Part shown: in pieces, positions 15,460 to 33,369 of the stretch
Layout of the letters: each line of letters starts with the position of its first letter
Numbering within the stretch: the first letter of the stretch is position 1
Made by a program: the position numbers and the translations under genes
The notes under the pieces: generated by a model
The model's input: the letters and a program-made list of their open reading frames with translations, nothing else
What the model was told of the DNA's origin: nothing
Database searches by the model: none
Source: Bryobacterales bacterium
GTDB lineage: Bacteria > Acidobacteriota > Terriglobia > Bryobacterales > UBA6623
NCBI GenBank assembly: GCA_963422375.2
Contig: OY729428.2
Location: 2,432,001 to 2,496,000 of the forward strand
DNA length: 64,000 nt
Reading direction: 5' to 3'

Positions 15460-15731
15460 CTTGAGTCGCCCCAGCCCCAGCGACAGCGCCAACGCGGCTC
15501 CAATCCGTCGCCGCGCCCGCCGATCTCGCAGCTGCCCCTCACGCCCCACCGCCGCGCCAGCGCCCCGCCATCCGGTTCGGCCGGCGCCGGCCCAGACTGC
15601 GATGGCCTGCCGAATCCGCCGAATCCGCCCGTGAGCCGGCCGTGTATATACACGGTGCCGGCCGAACTCCGGGAAAACCGATGACACTAGGAAATATTTA
15701 TGAAAAAACCAGAAATATACCTAAATACCTA

Positions 15732-15759
15732 TTGACATGAGACCACGATGTGGTATGCT
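15732..15759 (+). promoter_or_regulatory. Sigma70-type promoter P1
   Basis: TTGACA-N16-TATGCT, extended -10 TG, A/T-rich upstream tract. Confidence 0.75.
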
Positions 15760-16124
15760 GTAGGTATGACAGCCTGGTGGGACAGCCTACGCCACGCCCG
15801 ACGCGCTCGCAGCCGCGGACGCGATCTGGGGGGTTTACATGCTGCCCGCCCTCGCGGCCGGCAGCGCGGCGGTCGCCGCCGGAATCCTGGCCGGGCCCGC
15901 CGTCGGGCTCGGCCTCGCCGGCATCGCCGGGCCGCGACCCGCGGCTCGCCCCGAGACGGCCAGGGCGCGGCTCGGCCGGACCCGCTCCACGCCGGACGGG
16001 CTGCGGGCCGAAGCCCGCGAGGCCCGCGAGGCGGCCGAGAGGATCTCGCGCAGCGAGTGGATACCCGCTGCGACAATCCGCAGCCTGGTCCACGTGCTGC
16101 TGGACCAGGCGGACTGGCTGGACA

Positions 16125-16152
16125 TTGACAGTACCACACGATGTGGTACTGT
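16125..16152 (+). promoter_or_regulatory. Sigma70-type promoter P2 with palindrome gtaccaca-cga-tgtggtac
   Basis: TTGACA-N16-TACTGT followed by RBS ggaggaaagg and ATG 16172. Confidence 0.6.
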
Positions 16153-16171
16153 ACGGGAGGAAAGGAACACC

Positions 16172-16906
16172 ATGACCACCTATACATGCGTTGGTCCGGT
16201 GCGCGGGTGCTGCGGCATCCGGCACCGGACCCACGAGGAGGCCGACCGCTGCGTGCGCTACGACTCGGACGGCGAAGTTTCGCTGGGCCGGCACAGCGAT
16301 CGCCAGGTGGTGGTGGCGGAGGAGCACGAGGAGCTCCTTCCGCCGATCACATATACCTGCGTCGGACCGGTGCTCGGATGCTGCGGCATCCGGCACCGGA
16401 CCCACGAGGAGGCCGACCGCTGCATCGAGAGCAGCGAGGTCGTTGCTCCCGGCGATTGGTACGATCGCCGGATCGTGATCGCCGAGCGACACGGCGACGC
16501 GATCGCGGCCGTTCGGCAGCGGATCGATCTGCCGGCCGACATCGACCTGAGCCCGGTGGGTCTCGTGCTCACCGGGCACGAAATCCCGGCGATGGTGCAC
16601 CAGCAGCTGCACGCGGCTGGCCTGCACCCGGCCACCATGTGGTGCGACCACCACATGGGCGTACTGCTCGAGGACGTGCGCGGCACGCACGTCCTCGAGA
16701 TCCTACGAGAGGACGATCGCGAGGGCCTGCCGGCCCGCCTGGCGGTGCGTGCGGCCGGGTATCACCTGCTGGTGCTACCACGACCGCACGAGCAGGCGGG
16801 CCGGGCGCGGTACTACTCGTGCACGCGCAACGGCCCGCTGTGGGCGCCGCCCGGGCCGACTATGCGGGAGGCGGGTCGCGCCGCCTCCCAGGAGGAGACA
16901 CCATGA
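16172..16906 (+). CDS. Protein with two copies of the YTCxGxVxGCCGIRHR domain plus a C-terminal domain
   Basis: RBS plus ATG; two TYTCVGPVxGCCGIRHRTHEEADRC units; C-terminal part paralogous to 18552-19082. Confidence 0.8.
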   Translation: MTTYTCVGPVRGCCGIRHRTHEEADRCVRYDSDGEVSLGRHSDRQVVVAEEHEELLPPITYTCVGPVLGCCGIRHRTHEEADRCIESSEVVAPGDWYDRRIVIAERHGDAIAAVRQRIDLPADIDLSPVGLVLTGHEIPAMVHQQLHAAGLHPATMWCDHHMGVLLEDVRGTHVLEILREDDREGLPARLAVRAAGYHLLVLPRPHEQAGRARYYSCTRNGPLWAPPGPTMREAGRAASQEETP

Positions 16907-17319
16907 CCGAGGGGCAATGCGTACTGCTAATTGACCCGGACCGCGAGGATTGCGCCGGCGGCACGATCCTCGCATCCCTCTCAGACGGCCTAGTAGAGGT
17001 CGACTGGGACTACGAGATTAGCGGGCCGGTCGACCTTTCCGCGCTCGAGCCGACCGAGGCGCGCAGCGCGGCGGCGCGCGATCGCGAGATCTCGCGCCTA
17101 TGGAGCGAGCGTCACGCCTACACGTGCGTCGGGAGCGTGCGGGGATGCTGCGGCATCCGGCACCGCTCCCGTGCCGCCGCCGAGCGCTGCATCGAGCGAG
17201 ACGAGCGCCGTCTCGCCTCGCATGGGTGCTTCGGCGACCGCCAGGTGGTGCTCGCGAGGGAGCACGAGGACGAGCTGCGGTACCTCGCGGAGCTCCGGCG
17301 GCGCGGCCATCCATCATGA
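16903..17319 (+). CDS. Protein with C-terminal YTCxGxVxGCCGIRHR domain
   Basis: RBS aggaggag; YTCVGSVRGCCGIRHRSRAAAERC. Confidence 0.75.
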   Translation: MTEGQCVLLIDPDREDCAGGTILASLSDGLVEVDWDYEISGPVDLSALEPTEARSAAARDREISRLWSERHAYTCVGSVRGCCGIRHRSRAAAERCIERDERRLASHGCFGDRQVVLAREHEDELRYLAELRRRGHPS

Positions 17320-17588
17320 CCTATCCCGAGCCCACCTACACCTGCCTTGGGCCGGTGAGCGGATGCTGCGGCATCCGCCACCGGACCAAGTCCGCGGCCG
17401 AGCGCTGCGTCAATCGCCACTGGCGCAGCTGCGCCGACCAGGGCGGGTACGGCGAGCGCGTCGTCGTACCCGCGGACGAGCTCGAGCCGCCGCGGCGGCT
17501 CTCCGACGAGCCCGAGGCCGCTGCCGATCTCGAGCGGCGGTACGCCGACTCGCTGCAAACGCTGCGGCGGCTCGGACATTTTCCGTGA
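17316..17588 (+). CDS. Single-domain YTCxGxVxGCCGIRHR protein
   Basis: ATGA-coupled; MTYPEPTYTCLGPVSGCCGIRHRTKSAAERC. Confidence 0.75.
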   Translation: MTYPEPTYTCLGPVSGCCGIRHRTKSAAERCVNRHWRSCADQGGYGERVVVPADELEPPRRLSDEPEAAADLERRYADSLQTLRRLGHFP

Positions 17589-18517
17589 CGCCGCCGCGCC
17601 CCGGCCACGGGGCGGAGGCGCGGTTCGCCGAGCGCTTCGCCCCGGCCACGGCCCGCCTGTACGCGGGCCAGTGGCGGGCCTGGGAAACGTGGGCCTGGCT
17701 GTCGGGGCGGACGCCCCTGCCGGCCGATTCGGCTTCCCTGGCCGAGCACGTGCTGGCGCGCTCGGCCTCGGCCTCGATGCCCACGCTGCGGGCGGCGGTG
17801 GCGGCGGTCGGGGCCGCCCACCGCTTGGCTGGATCGCCCGACCCGTCGGACAGCGAGACCGTGCGGGCGGCGCTCGCGATGGCCGCGCGCAAGATCGGCA
17901 GCGACAGCGCGCAGGCGCGGCCGCTGGACGCGGCGGCGCTCGAGCTCGTTGTCGCGACCGCGACCAAGCCCCGGCGGGGGCGGGGGGGCAGTCGGGAGAC
18001 GCCGCGGAGGGCCGAGCGGCGCGGGCGGGTGGACATCGCGCTCTGCCGCGTGATGCGAGACGCCATGCTGCGGCGGTCCGAGGCCGCGGCGCTAGGATGG
18101 GGCGACGTGGAGACCTACACGGACGGGTCGGCGCGTCTGACGGTGAGGCGATCGAAGACGGACCAGGCGGGGCGGGGGGCGGTCCTGTACCTCGGTCCCG
18201 AGGCCGCCGCGGCGCTGGCCGCGATCCGTCCGGAGACGCCGCGCGGGACGGTATTCGGCCTGGGGGCGCGGCAGATCTGCCGCCGCATCGCCGCGGCCTG
18301 CCAGGCGGCCGGCCTGGGGGCGGGCTACTCGGGCCACTCTCCGCGGGTGGGCATGGCGCAGGACTTGGTGGCCTACGGGGCGGACCTGCCCGCCGTCATG
18401 CAGGCCGGGCGGTGGTCCTCGCCCGACATGCCCGCCCGCTACTCGCGGCACCTGCTGGCCGGGCGGGGGGCCGTCGCGCAGTACTACGCGTGCGGGCAGG
18501 TCCCGCGCGGACGATGA
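17585..18517 (+). CDS. Cre-like tyrosine recombinase
   Basis: GTG coupled to upstream stop; LRRSE (R), RSKTDQ (K), GHSPR (HxxR), GRW (W), ARY (Y); N-terminal core-binding domain. Confidence 0.9.
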   Translation: MTPPRPGHGAEARFAERFAPATARLYAGQWRAWETWAWLSGRTPLPADSASLAEHVLARSASASMPTLRAAVAAVGAAHRLAGSPDPSDSETVRAALAMAARKIGSDSAQARPLDAAALELVVATATKPRRGRGGSRETPRRAERRGRVDIALCRVMRDAMLRRSEAAALGWGDVETYTDGSARLTVRRSKTDQAGRGAVLYLGPEAAAALAAIRPETPRGTVFGLGARQICRRIAAACQAAGLGAGYSGHSPRVGMAQDLVAYGADLPAVMQAGRWSSPDMPARYSRHLLAGRGAVAQYYACGQVPRGR

Positions 18518-18551
18518 GAGAGGCCGGTCGCGCCGGCCAGGAGGAGACACC

Positions 18552-19082
18552 ATGACCTATCCCAAGCCCACATACACCTGCCTCGGCAGGGTGAGCGGAT
18601 GCTGCGGCATCCGCCACCGGAGCAGGGCCGAGGCCGAGCGCTGCATTGAGCGCGCGGCCGCTGCCTCGGAGGAGCAAGACGCTTATTTCGACCGCCGCAT
18701 CGTGCTCGCGTCAGAGCACGAATACGCGTTGGCGGCGGCGCGGCAGGTCATCGAGCTGCCGGCCGACATCGCGCTGAGCCCGGTAGGCCTGGTGGCCACG
18801 AGGCTCAAGCCCGAAATCCCGGACTCCTTTGAGCAGCTGCTCCTGGCGTCTGGGCTAAGCCCAGACGCCGAGTGGCGCGACGACCGCGGTCTGGGCGAGC
18901 AGGACACCAGGGATCGCATCGTCCTGGAGATCGTCCGGGAGGACGCTCGACTCAGCGAGGGGCTGTCGGCGCGGCTGGCGGTGCTGGCCAGAGCGTACCA
19001 TCTGCTGGTCCTGCCAGCTGTCCTGCCCGCCCCCATGCACGACGAGCGGGGAGGGGGCGTCGCGCGGTACGCTCGCTCCTAA
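18552..19082 (+). CDS. YTCxGxVxGCCGIRHR domain protein, paralogue of 16172-16906
   Basis: Shares LPADIxLSPVGLV, VLEIxRED, EGLxARLAV and YHLLVLP. Confidence 0.8.
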   Translation: MTYPKPTYTCLGRVSGCCGIRHRSRAEAERCIERAAAASEEQDAYFDRRIVLASEHEYALAAARQVIELPADIALSPVGLVATRLKPEIPDSFEQLLLASGLSPDAEWRDDRGLGEQDTRDRIVLEIVREDARLSEGLSARLAVLARAYHLLVLPAVLPAPMHDERGGGVARYARS

Positions 19083-19110
19083 CTGACAGCCGCCCTCGGC
19101 GTGGTAGGCT
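19083..19110 (+). promoter_or_regulatory. Degenerate promoter P3, likely leaderless transcript
   Basis: CTGACA-N16-TAGGCT-gtaggc-ATG, same layout as P1. Confidence 0.5.
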
Positions 19111-19116
19111 GTAGGC

Positions 19117-19422
19117 ATGACGACGGAGAGCTCCCGCACCGCCGAGCCGGCCCCGAAGAAGCGCTACGGCGCCAAGCAGGTGCGTGTCACGCAGCCGTGC
19201 ATGGACCTGCTAGCGGACTTGACGGCGCGCCTGGGGCCGCACTGGGCGCACCGGCCGGCGAGCGACGTGATCGCGTGGGCGGTCACGCGAGCGATCGCGA
19301 CGCTGGACCCCGAGACGGCGAAGACGGCGACCGGGCTGGCCGCGGCCCTGGACGCGCACGAGGCGGCGCTGCGCAGGTTCCGCGCGGGCTGGCCGGGCGA
19401 GCCGGCCGAGATGCCGCGATAG
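19117..19422 (+). CDS. Small protein, possible ribbon-helix-helix DNA-binding regulator
   Basis: KQVRVT strand followed by helices (MDLLADLTARL; ASDVIAWAV). Confidence 0.5.
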   Translation: MTTESSRTAEPAPKKRYGAKQVRVTQPCMDLLADLTARLGPHWAHRPASDVIAWAVTRAIATLDPETAKTATGLAAALDAHEAALRRFRAGWPGEPAEMPR

Positions 19423-19532
19423 TTGCCCCGCTCCCGATACGCATAGGGCGGGCCCTGGCGGGCCGGGGCGCCTAGCGCCAGGCAGGCCCGGAGAAATATT
19501 TGAAAAAAATCGGCATACGGGCTAAATACCTA

Positions 19533-19560
19533 TTGACAGACCTCCACGATGTGGTATACT
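19533..19560 (+). promoter_or_regulatory. Sigma70-type promoter P4
   Basis: TTGACA-N16-TATACT, extended -10, upstream tract similar to P1 (ctaaatacctattgaca). Confidence 0.8.
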
Positions 19561-19584
19561 GTATACAGGAAAGGAGGTCAGCAC

Positions 19585-19875
19585 ATGCAGTTTGACCTTA
19601 TCATCACGCGCCACCCGGCGCTGCTTACAGTCCTCGTCGAGGACTTCGGCGTGTCCCCGGACACGCCCGTGGTCGCCCACGCTACGGCGGGCGACCTGAA
19701 GGACAAGCACACCCTAGGCGTGCTTCCCGTGGGACTCGCGGCGCTTACCGCGAGTCACACGGAACTGGTGCTCCGGGTTCCCCCGGAGCTCCGGGGCACC
19801 GAACTCAACGCCCAGCAGGTCCGCCAGTACATGGCGGGCCTCAAGGCCTACCAAATTCAAGAGGTGACGCTGTAG
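19585..19875 (+). CDS. Csx16-like (Cas_VVA1548-like) protein, candidate ring nuclease
   Basis: 96 aa; IITRHP, LGVLPVGLAA and PPELRGTELN resemble the remembered Csx16 pattern (SRH.., IGTLP..LAA, RGxEL); RBS aaggaggt. Confidence 0.65.
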   Translation: MQFDLIITRHPALLTVLVEDFGVSPDTPVVAHATAGDLKDKHTLGVLPVGLAALTASHTELVLRVPPELRGTELNAQQVRQYMAGLKAYQIQEVTL

Positions 19876-19882
19876 GTCACCT

Positions 19883-19911
19883 GAGGCGCCCGGGCTTAGT
19901 CCGGGCGCCTC
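19883..19911 (+). terminator. GC-rich hairpin after the Csx16-like gene (no clear U-tract)
   Basis: gaggcgcccgg-gcttagt-ccgggcgcctc. Confidence 0.5.
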
Positions 19912-19929
19912 TAACCTTAGGGATTTCAG

Positions 19930-20535
19930 ATGACGACGATGCTATCGGCGACCGCCGGCCCGACCTTGAGTGACCTCGAAAACAAGAGGCAGCCCAAGGA
20001 AGCTGCCGAGAAGTACGGTATCACGACAGCCATGTATCGGCTGATGAGGTACGACGTGCTGAATCTCTGGGCTTACGTAGAGAAGTACCGGATTAGGCGG
20101 GACACCTATTACGACATTTACAATATAGAGGTCCTTCTTCTCGGCAAGGTGGCAGTCTACGCCCCGATAGGGCGCAGGCCCGAAATTCCTAGCCGATACG
20201 TGGAAAAGGAACTGCATATCGGCGAGGTAAGGCCTTGCGGTCATCAGATTCGCGTGGAGCGCAACTACGCGAGCGAGAAGGCACCCATCGAGTATCTGCC
20301 CGAGAGGGCATTCAATAAATGCTTCGAGGGCGATATGAACGTCCTGGTCAGGGACGTCATACGTCACTTCGATATAACGTGTCGGAGGATAGCAGGCATG
20401 ATTCTCTACTCCTACGACGACGAGATATATGCTAGCAAGCTGTATCAACGTCTGAGTATGGGCAGGGAAGTTGCGGACTTGCCTGTAGCCAGGGACGCGC
20501 TCCTGAGTGAGTATCGTACCCTAAAAGGAGAATAA
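19930..20535 (+). CDS. Unknown-function paralogue 1 of 4
   Basis: IGEVRPCGHQIRVERNYASE...RDVIRHFDITCRRIAG; lower GC. Confidence 0.75.
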   Translation: MTTMLSATAGPTLSDLENKRQPKEAAEKYGITTAMYRLMRYDVLNLWAYVEKYRIRRDTYYDIYNIEVLLLGKVAVYAPIGRRPEIPSRYVEKELHIGEVRPCGHQIRVERNYASEKAPIEYLPERAFNKCFEGDMNVLVRDVIRHFDITCRRIAGMILYSYDDEIYASKLYQRLSMGREVADLPVARDALLSEYRTLKGE

Positions 20536-21042
20536 ATGAAATACAAATACAAGTATCTTAGTAAGTACGAGATCGACAAGCTGGGGAGGGACTTCTTCCT
20601 CATAGTAGCTCCGATTACTACGATACCTATGTATCGGATGGGCCTCGAGGGGGATCCTACGGTCCCTAAGGGCCACATGAAATACTCGTTCTGTCTAGCG
20701 GATGTTAGGTCGTGTAGTAACAGGCTCCGTATAGAGTATCATTACGCGGGCGAGTGGGATCCGCTGGAGTACATGTCCAAGGAGCGCTACGAGAGCGATT
20801 ACGGGGGCGATTTGGATACTCTATGTAGAGACATCGCACGTCGTTTCGATATGTCGTGCAGTAAGATCAAGGGCATGGTGTCTTATCAAAAGTTTCCCGA
20901 GCCCAGCGCTTGGGATGAGATAAGGGCTATTAAGCTCTACGAGTGGCTACTAACAGGCAACGAGCCGTCGGACCTGTTAGTAGGCATAGGCAAGGGTAAC
21001 GTCTTGAGGGAGTTTACCTTACTAATGAAAGGAGAAGCATGA
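20536..21042 (+). CDS. Unknown-function paralogue 2 of 4
   Basis: LADVRSCSNRLRIEYHYAGE...RDIARRFDMSCSKIKG; RBS aaggag. Confidence 0.8.
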   Translation: MKYKYKYLSKYEIDKLGRDFFLIVAPITTIPMYRMGLEGDPTVPKGHMKYSFCLADVRSCSNRLRIEYHYAGEWDPLEYMSKERYESDYGGDLDTLCRDIARRFDMSCSKIKGMVSYQKFPEPSAWDEIRAIKLYEWLLTGNEPSDLLVGIGKGNVLREFTLLMKGEA

Positions 21043-21539
21043 AGTTCGAAATGGAAAGACGAGTCGGGCCGACATACGTTGTGTATGTCGTTCCGGACGA
21101 TGAAGACCCATTACGGGTGTTCACTATGGAGAGGGGCGCAGAGACGCCCCTGAAGGTCGACCTAAAGAAGTCGATAGCCTGCTTCCGGGCGGCGGGCCGA
21201 CAACTGCTCGTAGAGAGGTACTACGCCTCCTGCGAGCTGCCCATTGAGTACCACTCTCAGTGGGCAGTCAAGCGTCTCTGGAGGCACGAGCCTCTAGAGA
21301 TCGCACGGTCTCTCGTGCGCCAGTTTAGGCTGGCGTATAACGAGGCCGGAGGAATGGTGATACGCTACCGGAGCTGTGACGACGGCTATTTCACGGCCGC
21401 TTCACAGGCTCTCTACGAAGATCTGACGGGCTTCGAGGGCCCCCAGATTAAGTTCCATAACGAGCCAGAGAAGATCACAGTACCCGTGACCTTCTACATC
21501 GTGGGAAGGGAGGAATCACATGAAGAAGAAGAAGTATGA
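21039..21539 (+). CDS. Unknown-function paralogue 3 of 4 (most diverged)
   Basis: IACFRAAGRQLLVERYYASCELPIEY; RBS aaggag, ATGA overlap. Confidence 0.75.
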   Translation: MKFEMERRVGPTYVVYVVPDDEDPLRVFTMERGAETPLKVDLKKSIACFRAAGRQLLVERYYASCELPIEYHSQWAVKRLWRHEPLEIARSLVRQFRLAYNEAGGMVIRYRSCDDGYFTAASQALYEDLTGFEGPQIKFHNEPEKITVPVTFYIVGREESHEEEEV

Positions 21540-22077
21540 CGAGTCCGGAGCATACTACAGGGTGTATCGGTACACCCAGATGGGCTTCTGGAGTCATATC
21601 CAGAGCTACGAGGTCTCGGAAGCGGCAGGGGACTTCTTTGTTTCAGTGCGGCCTATGAACGAGATATGTCTGTACAAGCCGCCCATACATGGGGATAACC
21701 TAATTTCCAGCGTTCGGATCAATCATCCTATTCCTATCGCGGACGTAAGGCCCTGCGGTAGGGAACTGCGCGTAGAGAGATACTACGCGAGCGAGATGGC
21801 TCGCGTAGATCATATCCCTGAGGGGGTATTCGATCGCGAGTACGGGCAAGATCTAGATCTATTAGCTCGTGACATTGCACGTCATTTCGATTTGACGTGC
21901 CGTAGGATAGACGGAGCGGTGTTCTACCCGCACGCTTCAGATGGCGGCCCCCGGGAAGAGGTTAGGGCCGACAAGCTGTTTCGCCGCCTTCGGACGGGCG
22001 AGGATGTGGAGGACTTGATCCCGAACAGGAAGTATGTCCCAAAGGGGTATGCTTCCCTGCTTAAGTGGTACTCCTAA
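21520..22077 (+). CDS. Unknown-function paralogue 4 of 4
   Basis: IADVRPCGRELRVERYYASE...RDIARHFDLTCRRIDG; RBS ggagg. Confidence 0.8.
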   Translation: MKKKKYDESGAYYRVYRYTQMGFWSHIQSYEVSEAAGDFFVSVRPMNEICLYKPPIHGDNLISSVRINHPIPIADVRPCGRELRVERYYASEMARVDHIPEGVFDREYGQDLDLLARDIARHFDLTCRRIDGAVFYPHASDGGPREEVRADKLFRRLRTGEDVEDLIPNRKYVPKGYASLLKWYS

Positions 22078-22189: not shown

Positions 22190-23251
22190 TCAGGAGAGCC
22201 TTCCCACATCCTTCAGATGCTCGATGAACCGGTGGCCGATCAGCTCCGCCAAGCGGACAGGGACCGCGTTGCCGATCTGTCTCGACATCGACGCCATGCT
22301 CCCCTCGAAAACGAAGTCCTCCGGGAACGTCTGCAGGCAAGCCGCTTCTCGAACGCTGATGGCCCTGTGCTGCTCCGGGTGGCCGAAGCGGCCGTTCGAG
22401 TAGCTTGTGCATCGTGTGGTGAGCCCCGATGCGGGCGTGTCCCACGACATCCGGCCGTAGACGTCGCTATAGCCTGAGAAACCCTTGTGGCATTGGAGTC
22501 GCAGATGTTCCGGCCAGTCCCGATTGCCGCCGCCTTCCGGCGTCGCCTTGATGCGCTCCAGGTTGCGCGGGGAGAGATTTGCCGCTCTGTGGTTCGCAAC
22601 CTTCCTGTGCGCAGCGCCAGCCCGTAGCGGCGGAAGATGGGATATCCGGTCCCGGACCGTGGTGTATCGCTCGCACGACGTTCCCGGCCCGTGCGTCTCA
22701 TCGGGCAGATGGATCGCACCGTGGCGGCTCCCGACCAGGACGAGCCGGCGGCGGCTCTGCGGTACGCCGTACTTGGCGAGCGTGATGGGACGGTAGTCCA
22801 TTTTGTAACCCGCTCCGTCCAGTCGGCTCAGGAAACCGCCGAAAGGCTGACTGTTCGCGTCGAGCTTCTGCAAACCCGGAACGTTTTCCACGAAAACGAG
22901 ATCCGGGCGGCAAACTTCCACCAAGCGCGCAAAGCAGGCAAGCAGTGGCACGCGCTCGTCTCGATCCGGCAACGGTCGTGTCGTATTCTGTTGCGTGAAG
23001 GGCTGACACGGTGCGCATCCGCTGAACAGCACCGGTTTGGACCCTTCTGCCTCTACCCGGCTCCGGATCGCCTGGAGACTTGCCTTGCGGATATCCGCAA
23101 GTTCGAAATGCGCATCGGGAAAGTTGGCTTCGAAGCTCCCCTTCGCATCCGCATCGTGATCCAGGGCAAACGCGATCTCCATGCCCGCGGCTTGAAAACC
23201 GCAGCTTGCACCGCCACAGCCAGCGAAGAAGTCGTATACCCGAACCGTCAG
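22190..23251 (-). CDS. DNA (cytosine-5) methyltransferase, orphan; probable CTG start
   Basis: Motif I DFFAGCGG (upstream of first ATG), IV GCAPCQPF, VI ENVPG, VIII QSRRR, IX REAACLQTFP, X IGNAVP. Confidence 0.9.
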   Translation of the reverse strand: MTVRVYDFFAGCGGASCGFQAAGMEIAFALDHDADAKGSFEANFPDAHFELADIRKASLQAIRSRVEAEGSKPVLFSGCAPCQPFTQQNTTRPLPDRDERVPLLACFARLVEVCRPDLVFVENVPGLQKLDANSQPFGGFLSRLDGAGYKMDYRPITLAKYGVPQSRRRLVLVGSRHGAIHLPDETHGPGTSCERYTTVRDRISHLPPLRAGAAHRKVANHRAANLSPRNLERIKATPEGGGNRDWPEHLRLQCHKGFSGYSDVYGRMSWDTPASGLTTRCTSYSNGRFGHPEQHRAISVREAACLQTFPEDFVFEGSMASMSRQIGNAVPVRLAELIGHRFIEHLKDVGRLS

Positions 23252-23440: not shown

Positions 23441-23672
23441 TCCTGCACAGCAGGCTGCTCATCTGGCAGGAAATCACCCGCTGCACGATCGCGACGGCCC
23501 TTGTCCGGTCGGAGGGTCTGTCCGGGTCGATGCCGACCTGGGACGCGACGGCCGCCAGGGCTGCCGCGCCGAGGCACTCGGACACCATGCCCGCGATCCA
23601 CTCGCTCTTGCTATTGTCGTCGGCGCCGCCCAGGGGAGCGGAATCGCCGAAGGTCACGAGCGGTCGCGGCAT
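23436..23672 (-). CDS. Hypothetical protein
   Basis: MPRPLVTFGDS... 78 aa in operon context. Confidence 0.4.
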   Translation of the reverse strand: MPRPLVTFGDSAPLGGADDNSKSEWIAGMVSECLGAAALAAVASQVGIDPDRPSDRTRAVAIVQRVISCQMSSLLCRN

Positions 23673-24649
23673 CTGCGGTTGATCTCCTGCAGGCAGGCGA
23701 GGGCCGCGGCGCGACACTCCACGAGCGTGTCCTTGGAGAGGCCGGCCGCGTCGCGATGGCCGCCGCCGCCGTGCCGGCTGGCGACGGCCGACAGGTCGAT
23801 GCCGGGGGCCTTGCCGCGGGCCCAGGGGTTGGCGCCGAGCGAGACGCCGAACTTCTCGGGGCCGCTCCAGGTCTGCACGCTGAAGAGCGCCTCGGGGAAG
23901 CGCCGGTAGGGCGCGTAGCGCGAGAAGCCGTGCCGGCCCCCGGCTCCGTCGGCGAAGGCGACGGAGCCCCGCAGCTCGCAAGCCTTCTCCGCGTCGCTGT
24001 CGGCCTGCAGCTGCCGGCGGCGCATGGCGGCGAAGCGCTCGGTGGCGGCGATCTCGCGGGCGCAGCCGCCGAGCCCCTCGGCGCGCAGGGCCGCGATCAC
24101 CGAGCTCTGCTCGCCGGGCCGGGCATGCTTCAGGTAGAGGCGGACCTGCAGCGCGGGCAGGTCCGTGTCGAGCGCCTGGTCCGCCGACTCGTAGCTCGCC
24201 GTGTCGCACAGGTCGGCCCAATGCACCAGCTCTTCCCACTGGGGGCCGGCGACGCCCAGGGCGCGGGCGATCAGGCCCGCGCAGCTCGGGGCCGAGGGAT
24301 CGCAGGCGAAGCGGCCGGGCCGCTCCCCCTTGCGTATCTCGTATTCCGCCCGCTGCGCGTAGCCGTCCGGCCCGTCGGAGAAGCTGGTCTCGTGGTGGTC
24401 GAACCACCAGGCGAGCGCGGGGTCGGGCGTCCAGCGGAAGTCGACCACGGCGCTCGCGGAGAAGCCGTGCGCGGGCAGCGGCCGCGGGTCGACGTAGGCG
24501 CGCGGCAGGTAGGCGCAGGTCGCGTCCTGGCCGAGCTCGCGATGGACGGCCTCGGTGAGGACGGCGGCGCTGATCGCGCCGTCGAAGCAGTGCCCGTGGT
24601 AGGCGACCAGCACGCTCTTGCGGCTCGGTCCGGTGACGTTCGGTTGCAT
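23654..24649 (-). CDS. DHH/DHHA1 phosphoesterase
   Basis: YHGHCFDG, VVDF, WFDHH and GGGGHRDAAG motifs. Confidence 0.9.
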   Translation of the reverse strand: MQPNVTGPSRKSVLVAYHGHCFDGAISAAVLTEAVHRELGQDATCAYLPRAYVDPRPLPAHGFSASAVVDFRWTPDPALAWWFDHHETSFSDGPDGYAQRAEYEIRKGERPGRFACDPSAPSCAGLIARALGVAGPQWEELVHWADLCDTASYESADQALDTDLPALQVRLYLKHARPGEQSSVIAALRAEGLGGCAREIAATERFAAMRRRQLQADSDAEKACELRGSVAFADGAGGRHGFSRYAPYRRFPEALFSVQTWSGPEKFGVSLGANPWARGKAPGIDLSAVASRHGGGGHRDAAGLSKDTLVECRAAALACLQEINRRCRDRS

Positions 24650-33292: not shown

Positions 33293-33369
33293 TGGTCGGG
33301 GCGCCGAGATTTGAACTCGGGACCTCTTGCTCCCGAAGCAAGCGCGCTACCAGGCTGCGCCACGCCCCG
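33293..33369 (-). tRNA. tRNA-Pro (anticodon CGG)
   Basis: CGGGGCGTGGCGCAGCCTGGTAGCGCGCTTGCTTCGGGAGCAAGAGGTCCCGAGTTCAAATCTCGGCGCCCCGACCA; cloverleaf, TTC loop, CCA end. Confidence 0.97.

Follow-up and report, generated by a model that had tools for sequence, protein, structure and literature searches.

What is the function of a small Cys/His domain that a prophage of a Bryobacterales bacterium carries five times, in four genes arranged around a Cre-like recombinase? The locus lies in a 64,000-nucleotide (nt) stretch of contig OY729428.2 (assembly GCA_963422375.2, positions 2,432,001 to 2,496,000), hereafter the window, whose numbering is used throughout unless a coordinate carries a genome prefix. 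An earlier note, made from the sequence of this stretch, had described the copies without being able to assign them to a family, and had proposed a metal-binding module amplified and shuffled onto different partners, possibly a diversifying effector family. We find the feature to be real: a new, unnamed phage family in a locus of known type. The cassette that houses the four genes (A to D) is most likely an early counter-defence regulon of the Aca14 kind, with duplication and homologous exchange as the source of the extra domain copies.

Results

Five copies of one domain in four genes

A six-frame motif scan of the window recovers exactly five copies, all on the plus strand and distributed as the earlier note had it, with two in gene A (A1 and A2) and one each in genes B, C and D (Table 1). 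A profile of the five finds no sixth copy in the 6.0-Mb genome (next match, expect value (E) = 0.14), and 19 of the 51 columns of their alignment are invariant, far above chance. The 45-nt core said to be identical between the first two copies is indeed so, and reflects a recent duplication or gene conversion within gene A. Stop and start codons overlap at A/B and B/C (ATGA) and at C/recombinase (GTGA); the translational coupling claimed for the recombinase therefore holds on its gene C side but not at its junction with gene D, where 34 nt and a ribosome-binding site separate two uncoupled genes. The regions joined to the domain do differ, in three types rather than four, as a single unit, duplicated, makes up both gene D and copy A2 with its partner region (56% protein identity; 68% DNA identity over 459 nt). 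Genes A to D have no significant match in Pfam, PHROGs, NCBIfam or PADLOC (general libraries; no dedicated anti-CRISPR library was searched), and when gene C or the gene D partner region served as a lone query for homologs, only the window's own proteins came back; relatives were reached through the profile described below. That partner region has no match in the PDB and its model lies mostly below 55 in predicted local distance difference test (pLDDT) score. An SH3-like reading of the gene B N-terminus, made by eye, found no support in a pairwise test (E = 0.16).

The domain belongs to a phage family unnamed in every library searched

A hidden Markov model of the five copies leads to a phage family of 569 clusters at 50% identity (E up to 0.001). 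Of the 150 clusters that were listed, the window's own account for four and a spurious repeat protein for one, which leaves 145 that bear the domain. Standalone proteins of fewer than 150 amino acids (aa) predominate, and tandem copies occur in 2 of the 145 among the matches listed. The family consensus is YTCxGxVRGxCGHxHRTxxAAxRCxxRDxxGCxxQGGYSDRxV; the motif given in the earlier note captures the local version of it, in which the C-terminal half is largely lost from four of the five copies. The view that the domain has no assignable family is upheld, since no named family matches it in Pfam, PHROGs, NCBIfam, PADLOC or PDB sequences (best PDB match, E = 0.86). A set of 112 family members reaches five Pfam families with one member each, at E of at least 0.0037, and just two unnamed PHROGs. 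There is no Rfam match, and the motif string is absent from the literature searched.

Across 146 domains the four putative ligands are conserved at 98% (C), 100% (H), 93% (C) and 95% (C). This Cys/His set is compatible with the metal-binding module proposed earlier, with metal binding itself kept as a prediction. Judging from these positions, the domain is probably a unit of about 48 aa, built of a beta-hairpin, a helix and a strand, that holds one zinc through C-x3-H-x8-C and a fourth Cys. AlphaFold2 returns the same beta-hairpin, helix and strand for copies C and D with confidence (pLDDT 83-98), and searches with this fold turned up no significant structural neighbour: the best Z score is 4.8 (root-mean-square deviation 2.1, 53 residues aligned), none of 48,161 chains reaches 5, and no Foldseek match has E<=0.001. 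Two weak hits of the fold search, ClpS (Z 4.8) and PDB 8g9s chain A (Z 3.9), which we take to be an AcrIC protein, are treated as chance matches.

Some relatives depart from the consensus. Members at L043, L057, L058 and L061 lack the C-x3-H ligands and keep GxVRG and the GGYSD loop, so that either of the two, metal site or loop, can be lost without the other. Two short members (L111:9340-9534 in genome G012 and L112:9379-9615 in G034) are without the fourth-Cys loop and have an adjacent Cys pair, which echoes a possible ligand swap in the window copies.

In all 57 other loci inspected (54 of them viral, 3 bacterial; flanks of up to 6 kb), the domain gene is single-copy. These loci were located with canonical motifs and are a biased set; five are near-duplicates, leaving 52 non-redundant. 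The family gene usually sits among small unannotated genes, with small helix-turn-helix or ribbon-helix-helix (RHH) genes adjoining it in four loci. A sigma-70-like promoter lies within 250 nt upstream of 9 of 50 family genes and 44 of 562 other open reading frames (ORFs) (P=0.03). Nearer the host, 2 of 76 other genomes of its family carry one domain copy each. Scans with the window's own motif gave no relative, either among 105 candidates in viral contigs or in metagenomes (0 of 300), and a canonical member used as query had no match in phage records (50,697) or plasmid records (72,556); three further candidate loci proved false on inspection. The csx16 or domain loci of genomes G016, G069, G012 and G034 hold no similar cassette. 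As to varying architecture across related phages, no related phage with another cassette layout was recovered, and the sole evidence of variation comes from the diverged host spacers described below.

The amplification is local and the copies have diverged

The proposed amplification is borne out by the single-copy state at the other loci and by a quick tree that sets the five copies apart as one group from 146 other domains (support 76, a grouping neither shown nor rejected); it is probably local. All five copies keep the first three ligands and have two other Cys residues, and one keeps the fourth Cys; the other four lack it together with most of the GGYSDR loop. DNA identity between copies is patchy, reaching 91% over 79 nt for A1/A2 and 89% over 97 nt for the starts of C and D, which is the pattern of duplication and homologous exchange. 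A common structure for the two hairpin modules ahead of genes B and D found no support. Perfect hairpins with arms of at least 9 bp crowd this region, with 8 of the prophage's 22 falling within 16000-20000 (simulated mean 0.5, maximum 4) and several sitting inside genes. In two other samples, the central part of the cassette (16426-18619) has a lower contig depth than its flanks (193-201 versus 310-329 in X1; 25-30 versus 37-38 in X3); depth is not a copy number, and the dip could stem from deletions between repeats or from GC bias.

The cassette has a shared operator-like repeat, a candidate repressor and a ring-nuclease homolog

The prophage is 59.7 kb long and integrated at tRNA-Pro, and the cassette lies upstream of the small terminase gene on the opposite strand. 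Four promoter-like sites, P1 to P4, are each overlapped by one shared inverted repeat, as in loci of anti-CRISPR-associated (Aca) regulators (CRISPR denoting short palindromic repeats that are clustered and regularly interspaced). The operator-like pattern occurs five times in the genome, four of them in the cassette. Gene E encodes an RHH-like protein whose language-model features score 0.92-0.93 against MetJ and ParB-C clusters, its ten best named matches falling in one family or clan. Very probably the cassette is an early accessory regulon.

Under P4 stands a homolog of Csx16 (Cas_VVA1548), recognised over residues 6-91 by Pfam (E=5e-13; 49.5 bits against a cut-off of 25) and by PADLOC (E=2.5e-12), and below the NCBIfam cut-off. 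Csx16 is a confirmed ring nuclease for cyclic tetra-adenylate (cA4) and is counted in 2 of 28,114 phage genomes (PMC12409355). All three csx16 copies of this genome lie in prophages. A second prophage, present in three copies (G000:C1:1832315-1832657, C3:19533-19800 and C2:1341340-1341437), has csx16 joined to a 39-nt piece of the window recombinase start. Of these three genes, one is intact, one is missing its 5' end and one is reduced to 8 codons. After gene E, an element of 38 nt that contains a hairpin (19427-19464) has a 95% match in all three copies of that prophage, where it borders restriction-modification-like cargo.

The four genes after csx16 form a second amplified family, with 25-37% identity to the first paralog in a block of 53% GC. 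No homolog was found among 5.8 billion proteins at near lengths, and kinship with the Cys/His domain was rejected (probability 0.4%). These paralogs are equally good counter-defence candidates. Converging on the cassette from the minus strand are a DNA cytosine methyltransferase gene and a gene for a protein with, by eye, a DHH-phosphoesterase-like start (22190-23182 and 23654-24649, respectively).

Host spacers concentrate on the cassette

The genome has a single CRISPR array of 30 spacers (G000:C1:378282-380516, L001), and no solitary copy of its repeat was found elsewhere. The array adjoins Cas4g/Cas1g, the type I-G adaptation module, and a type III-B effector locus with intact genes for Cmr1-6, including GGDD, and for a CARF effector. 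Of three I-G loci, one has an uninterrupted csb2-cas7g-cas8g-cas3 and lies about 46 kb from the array; the two effector types may share the one array. Twelve of the 30 spacers closely match the host's own prophages, six the present one (at most 5 mismatches) and six another, and nine of these 12 matches are flanked by TTN, which PMC9638904 gives as the protospacer-adjacent motif (PAM) of type I-G. A mobile element, a CRISPR-Cas host and self-targeting spacers thus occur together, as at Aca loci.

With four diverged matches included, ten spacers match the prophage, and eight of them fall within 4.0 of its 59.7 kb (scan P ~5e-6); for close matches alone the figure is four of six in the cassette (15668-18729; P=0.007). 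Three of the eight (spacers 6, 20 and 12) form a block in gene A at 16425..16664. Among 150 DNA shuffles over the prophage, none equals spacers 11 and 20, and spacers 1 and 12 are reached by 5 and 3, respectively; at the protein level, spacer 1 scores above 39 of 40 shuffles, and spacers 12 and 20 above all 40. In the partner region of gene A, spacers 12 and 20 preserve the encoded protein. The four diverged spacers (9-12 mismatches) record related phages with diverged A, B and csx16. This favours the diversifying part of the earlier idea of a diversifying effector family; that the proteins are effectors we keep as a conjecture.

Spacers 6 and 15 are complementary to the mRNAs of genes A and D, with 2 of 8 tag pairs, so that type III-B should be triggered when these genes are expressed. 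Outside the cassette, spacers 16 and 17 match the prophage perfectly with TTC flanks, which calls for either a type I-G inhibitor or a silent I-G system. Most of the close cassette protospacers (those of spacers 6, 13 and 15) have changes in or next to the PAM, in contrast to the perfect matches of 16 and 17. The target of spacer 17 is a 4,030-aa ORF in the virion gene block (G000:C2:2418017-2430106).

Table 1. Features of the cassette and of the prophage boundary, in window coordinates.
Feature	Position	Strand	Remarks
Spacer 13 protospacer	15668..15704	-	5 mismatches, TTT flank
Promoter P1	15721..15762	+	TTGACA-16-TATGCT with the common inverted repeat (CCAC-n3-GTGG core)
Promoter P2	16124..16152	+	TTGACA, weak -10; overlapped by a perfect inverted repeat with 11-bp arms (16128-16152), predicted operator
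Gene A, 244 aa	16172..16906	+	Copy A1 ~16175-16327, copy A2 ~16346-16492, then partner region common to gene D
45-nt identical segments, gene A	16208-16252, 16379-16423	+	
Spacer 6 protospacer, gene A	16425-16462		Complementary to mRNA; 3 mismatches
Spacer 20 diverged match, gene A	16555		9 mismatches, protein-conserving
Spacer 12 diverged match, gene A	16626		12 mismatches, protein-conserving
Hairpin and ribosome-binding module ahead of gene B	16850..16908	+	Second instance ahead of gene D, 18502-18557; 83% over 59 nt
Spacer 11 diverged match, module before gene B	16897		9 mismatches
Gene B, 138 aa	16903..17319	+	70-aa N-terminal region without assignment, then one copy ~17113-17265
Gene C, 90 aa	17316..17588	+	Copy nearest the family consensus, retains fourth Cys; C-terminal helix; model pLDDT 91
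Cre-like tyrosine recombinase, 310 aa	17585..18517	+	Catalytic R, K, H-x-x-R, W, Y motifs present
Spacer 15 protospacer, gene D	18529-18563		Complementary to mRNA; 0 mismatches
Gene D, 176 aa	18552..19082	+	Copy ~18567-18719, then partner region common to gene A
Spacer 8 protospacer, gene D	18690-18729		3 mismatches
Promoter P3	19082..19113	+	With degenerate inverted-repeat copy; precedes gene E
Gene E, 101 aa, RHH-like	19117..19422	+	pI 9.5; candidate repressor of P1-P4
Promoter P4	19522..19563	+	TTGACA-16-TATACT, 11/12, with inverted repeat; precedes csx16 and four paralogs
Csx16 (Cas_VVA1548) ring-nuclease homolog, 96 aa	19585..19875	+	
Spacer 1 diverged match, csx16	19648		11 mismatches, TTC flank
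Four paralogs, second family unrelated to the domain	19930..22077	+	No homolog found outside the prophage
Right attachment site, tRNA-Pro	33293..33342	.	Left site outside the window at G000:C2:2405602

Discussion

The observations fit best with a cassette that works against host defence early in the phage cycle. Gene E would keep P1 to P4 low in the lysogen, as Aca14 does, and upon infection or induction the cassette would fire early. Pairing of spacers 6 and 15 with the A and D mRNAs would then set off cA4 synthesis by type III-B, and co-regulated Csx16 would degrade the product. The domain proteins would be small binders of host defence, the I-G or III-B machinery being obvious targets, and their zinc core would be kept while the helix end and the loop diversify. 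Copies would arise by tandem duplication and homologous exchange, with the recombinase as an inserted passenger. The odds that the domain copies counter host defence fall a little short of even; that they are specifically anti-CRISPR is decidedly less likely. Less probable again is the most specific version, a new anti-CRISPR scaffold, amplified and retargeted with its zinc core kept and its binding loop rewritten, of which at least one copy inhibits type I-G Cascade-Cas3.

Several points weigh against the counter-defence regulon. The step from the regulon to the function of the domain is guilt by association, and the family-wide neighbourhood gives it no backing: among 231 ORFs near the 52 loci, of which 150 were compared with PHROGs and 150 with Pfam (149 in both), the 150 scanned neighbours include no known anti-CRISPR, ring nuclease or other anti-defence gene, and no near neighbour recurs across the 52. 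Loss of a nearly invariant loop from four of five copies fits decay as well as retargeting. The matches of gene E have 151-156 features in common, fewer than the 170 typical of same-family matches, and the gene has no match in Pfam, NCBIfam, the PDB or related genomes. As for the spacers, early transcription alone can give rise to hotspots, according to PMC13575424 and PMC7515739. The second prophage has a hotspot too, in head genes, and the eight cassette spacers show no clear type III strand bias (five match the minus and three the plus strand). An I-G inhibitor may lie elsewhere, the second prophage with its three copies included, or I-G may be silent; and should the assembly derive from a mixed population, the array and the prophage may belong to different cells.

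The loss of the loop, together with the single-copy, standalone state of the domain elsewhere and its lack of anti-defence neighbours, would also suit a generic early accessory gene with a host-takeover or phage-internal job, whose extra copies are partly decaying by-products of recombination, while Csx16 and perhaps others counter defence. The cassette also holds four members of a second, unrelated family, so that amplification belongs to the region as such. However, every frame is open and coupled, the core ligands and the fold are kept, the variants recorded by spacers retain the partner region's protein sequence, and the copies have an operator in common with csx16; we regard this explanation as unlikely, if the most serious of the rivals. 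A different use for the loop would be to bind, with the invariant G, R, H, D and R, a small nucleotide messenger of immunity, with tandem copies acting as fused dimers in support of Csx16. Very strong conservation across phages of 33-74% GC, which suggests a host-independent ligand, the tandem copies in gene A and in the two other proteins, and the adjacent ring nuclease all speak for such a binder, which is nevertheless improbable, as the local copies lose exactly that loop and no solved structure matches. Own sigma-70-type promoters, the accessory position and the neighbouring DNA methyltransferase might instead mark a moron expressed in the lysogen to aid the host, for example in superinfection exclusion or anti-phage defence. 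Yet genes A to E have no PADLOC match, steady expression would expose the targets of spacers 6 and 15 to type III-B, and Csx16 weakens host defence, which makes a moron slightly less probable still.

The mechanism implied by the earlier note, in which the recombinase is a programmed diversifier that shuffles the domain onto partners, has the least to commend it. The enzyme is intact and coupled to gene C, scores above the PF00589 cut-off, and has motifs for the catalytic R-K-H-R-W-Y at residues 162, 188, 250, 275 and 284; the 39-nt piece of its start that is joined to csx16 in the second prophage indicates that cassette pieces move. But no repeated lox-like site flanks the copies, as perfect inverted repeats with 6-8-nt spacers are all single-copy (imperfect sites lay outside the search), and strong homologs, found in 12 congeneric genomes, are solitary in 12 of 12 loci inspected. 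Cassette pieces in samples X1 and X3 have 0 differences, with no joint listed inside the array, where contigs break at repeats and exchange at those very points may escape notice, and the mosaic joins follow ordinary homology. Programmed shuffling is thus not supported by the sequences at hand, and we infer that the recombinase is an inserted passenger. It is distinct from the prophage integrase, since a separate integrase-like ORF, recognised by eye, stands beside the left attachment site.

With the counter-defence regulon as the favoured reading, the locus matters in two ways. It provides, for a conserved phage protein family of hundreds of clusters, the sole context so far that points to a function, namely a heavily CRISPR-targeted cassette with an adjacent ring nuclease in a host with two CRISPR types. 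It also yields, in genes A to D and the four downstream paralogs, a short list of candidate inhibitors of type I-G, for which no named anti-CRISPR was found in the literature searched. Inhibition of I-G, if true, would account for survival of the prophage despite perfect TTC-flanked spacers, with Csx16 covering type III-B; and if the copies differ in target, they would exemplify how a phage, by amplifying a gene, can diversify a single scaffold against the immunity of its host.

Comparison with known systems

The nearest catalogued relatives of the domain are themselves without assigned function: phrog_33449 is matched by 2 of the 112 family members and by none of the window copies, and phage clusters of the ESM Atlas (68-77 aa; nearest score 0.85-0.88) serve as leads only. 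The recombinase resembles Cre-like tyrosine recombinases (PF00589, phrog_1) in its catalytic motifs and has related genes in congeneric genomes; unlike Cre-like systems, it has no paired sites that we could find. Compared with the phage-borne ring nucleases AcrIII-1/Crn2, Csx20 and Csx16, as described in PMC12409355, the prophage has a putative Csx16 of its own, and its host a cyclase-type III-B system; the Cys/His domain is not similar to these enzymes, and the comparison names the neighbouring gene only. The closest parallel is with Aca14, an RHH protein that represses a csx20 operon and its neighbour through similar repeats (bioRxiv 10.64898/2026.07.27.740549). The window departs from such operons in its GC-rich repeat, in having Csx16 rather than csx20 and in carrying no known anti-CRISPR gene, and gene E is likened to Aca14 by layout, not sequence. 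Common to both are an RHH-like regulator gene, one inverted repeat that overlaps several promoters close together, and predicted targets that include a Cas-derived ring nuclease.

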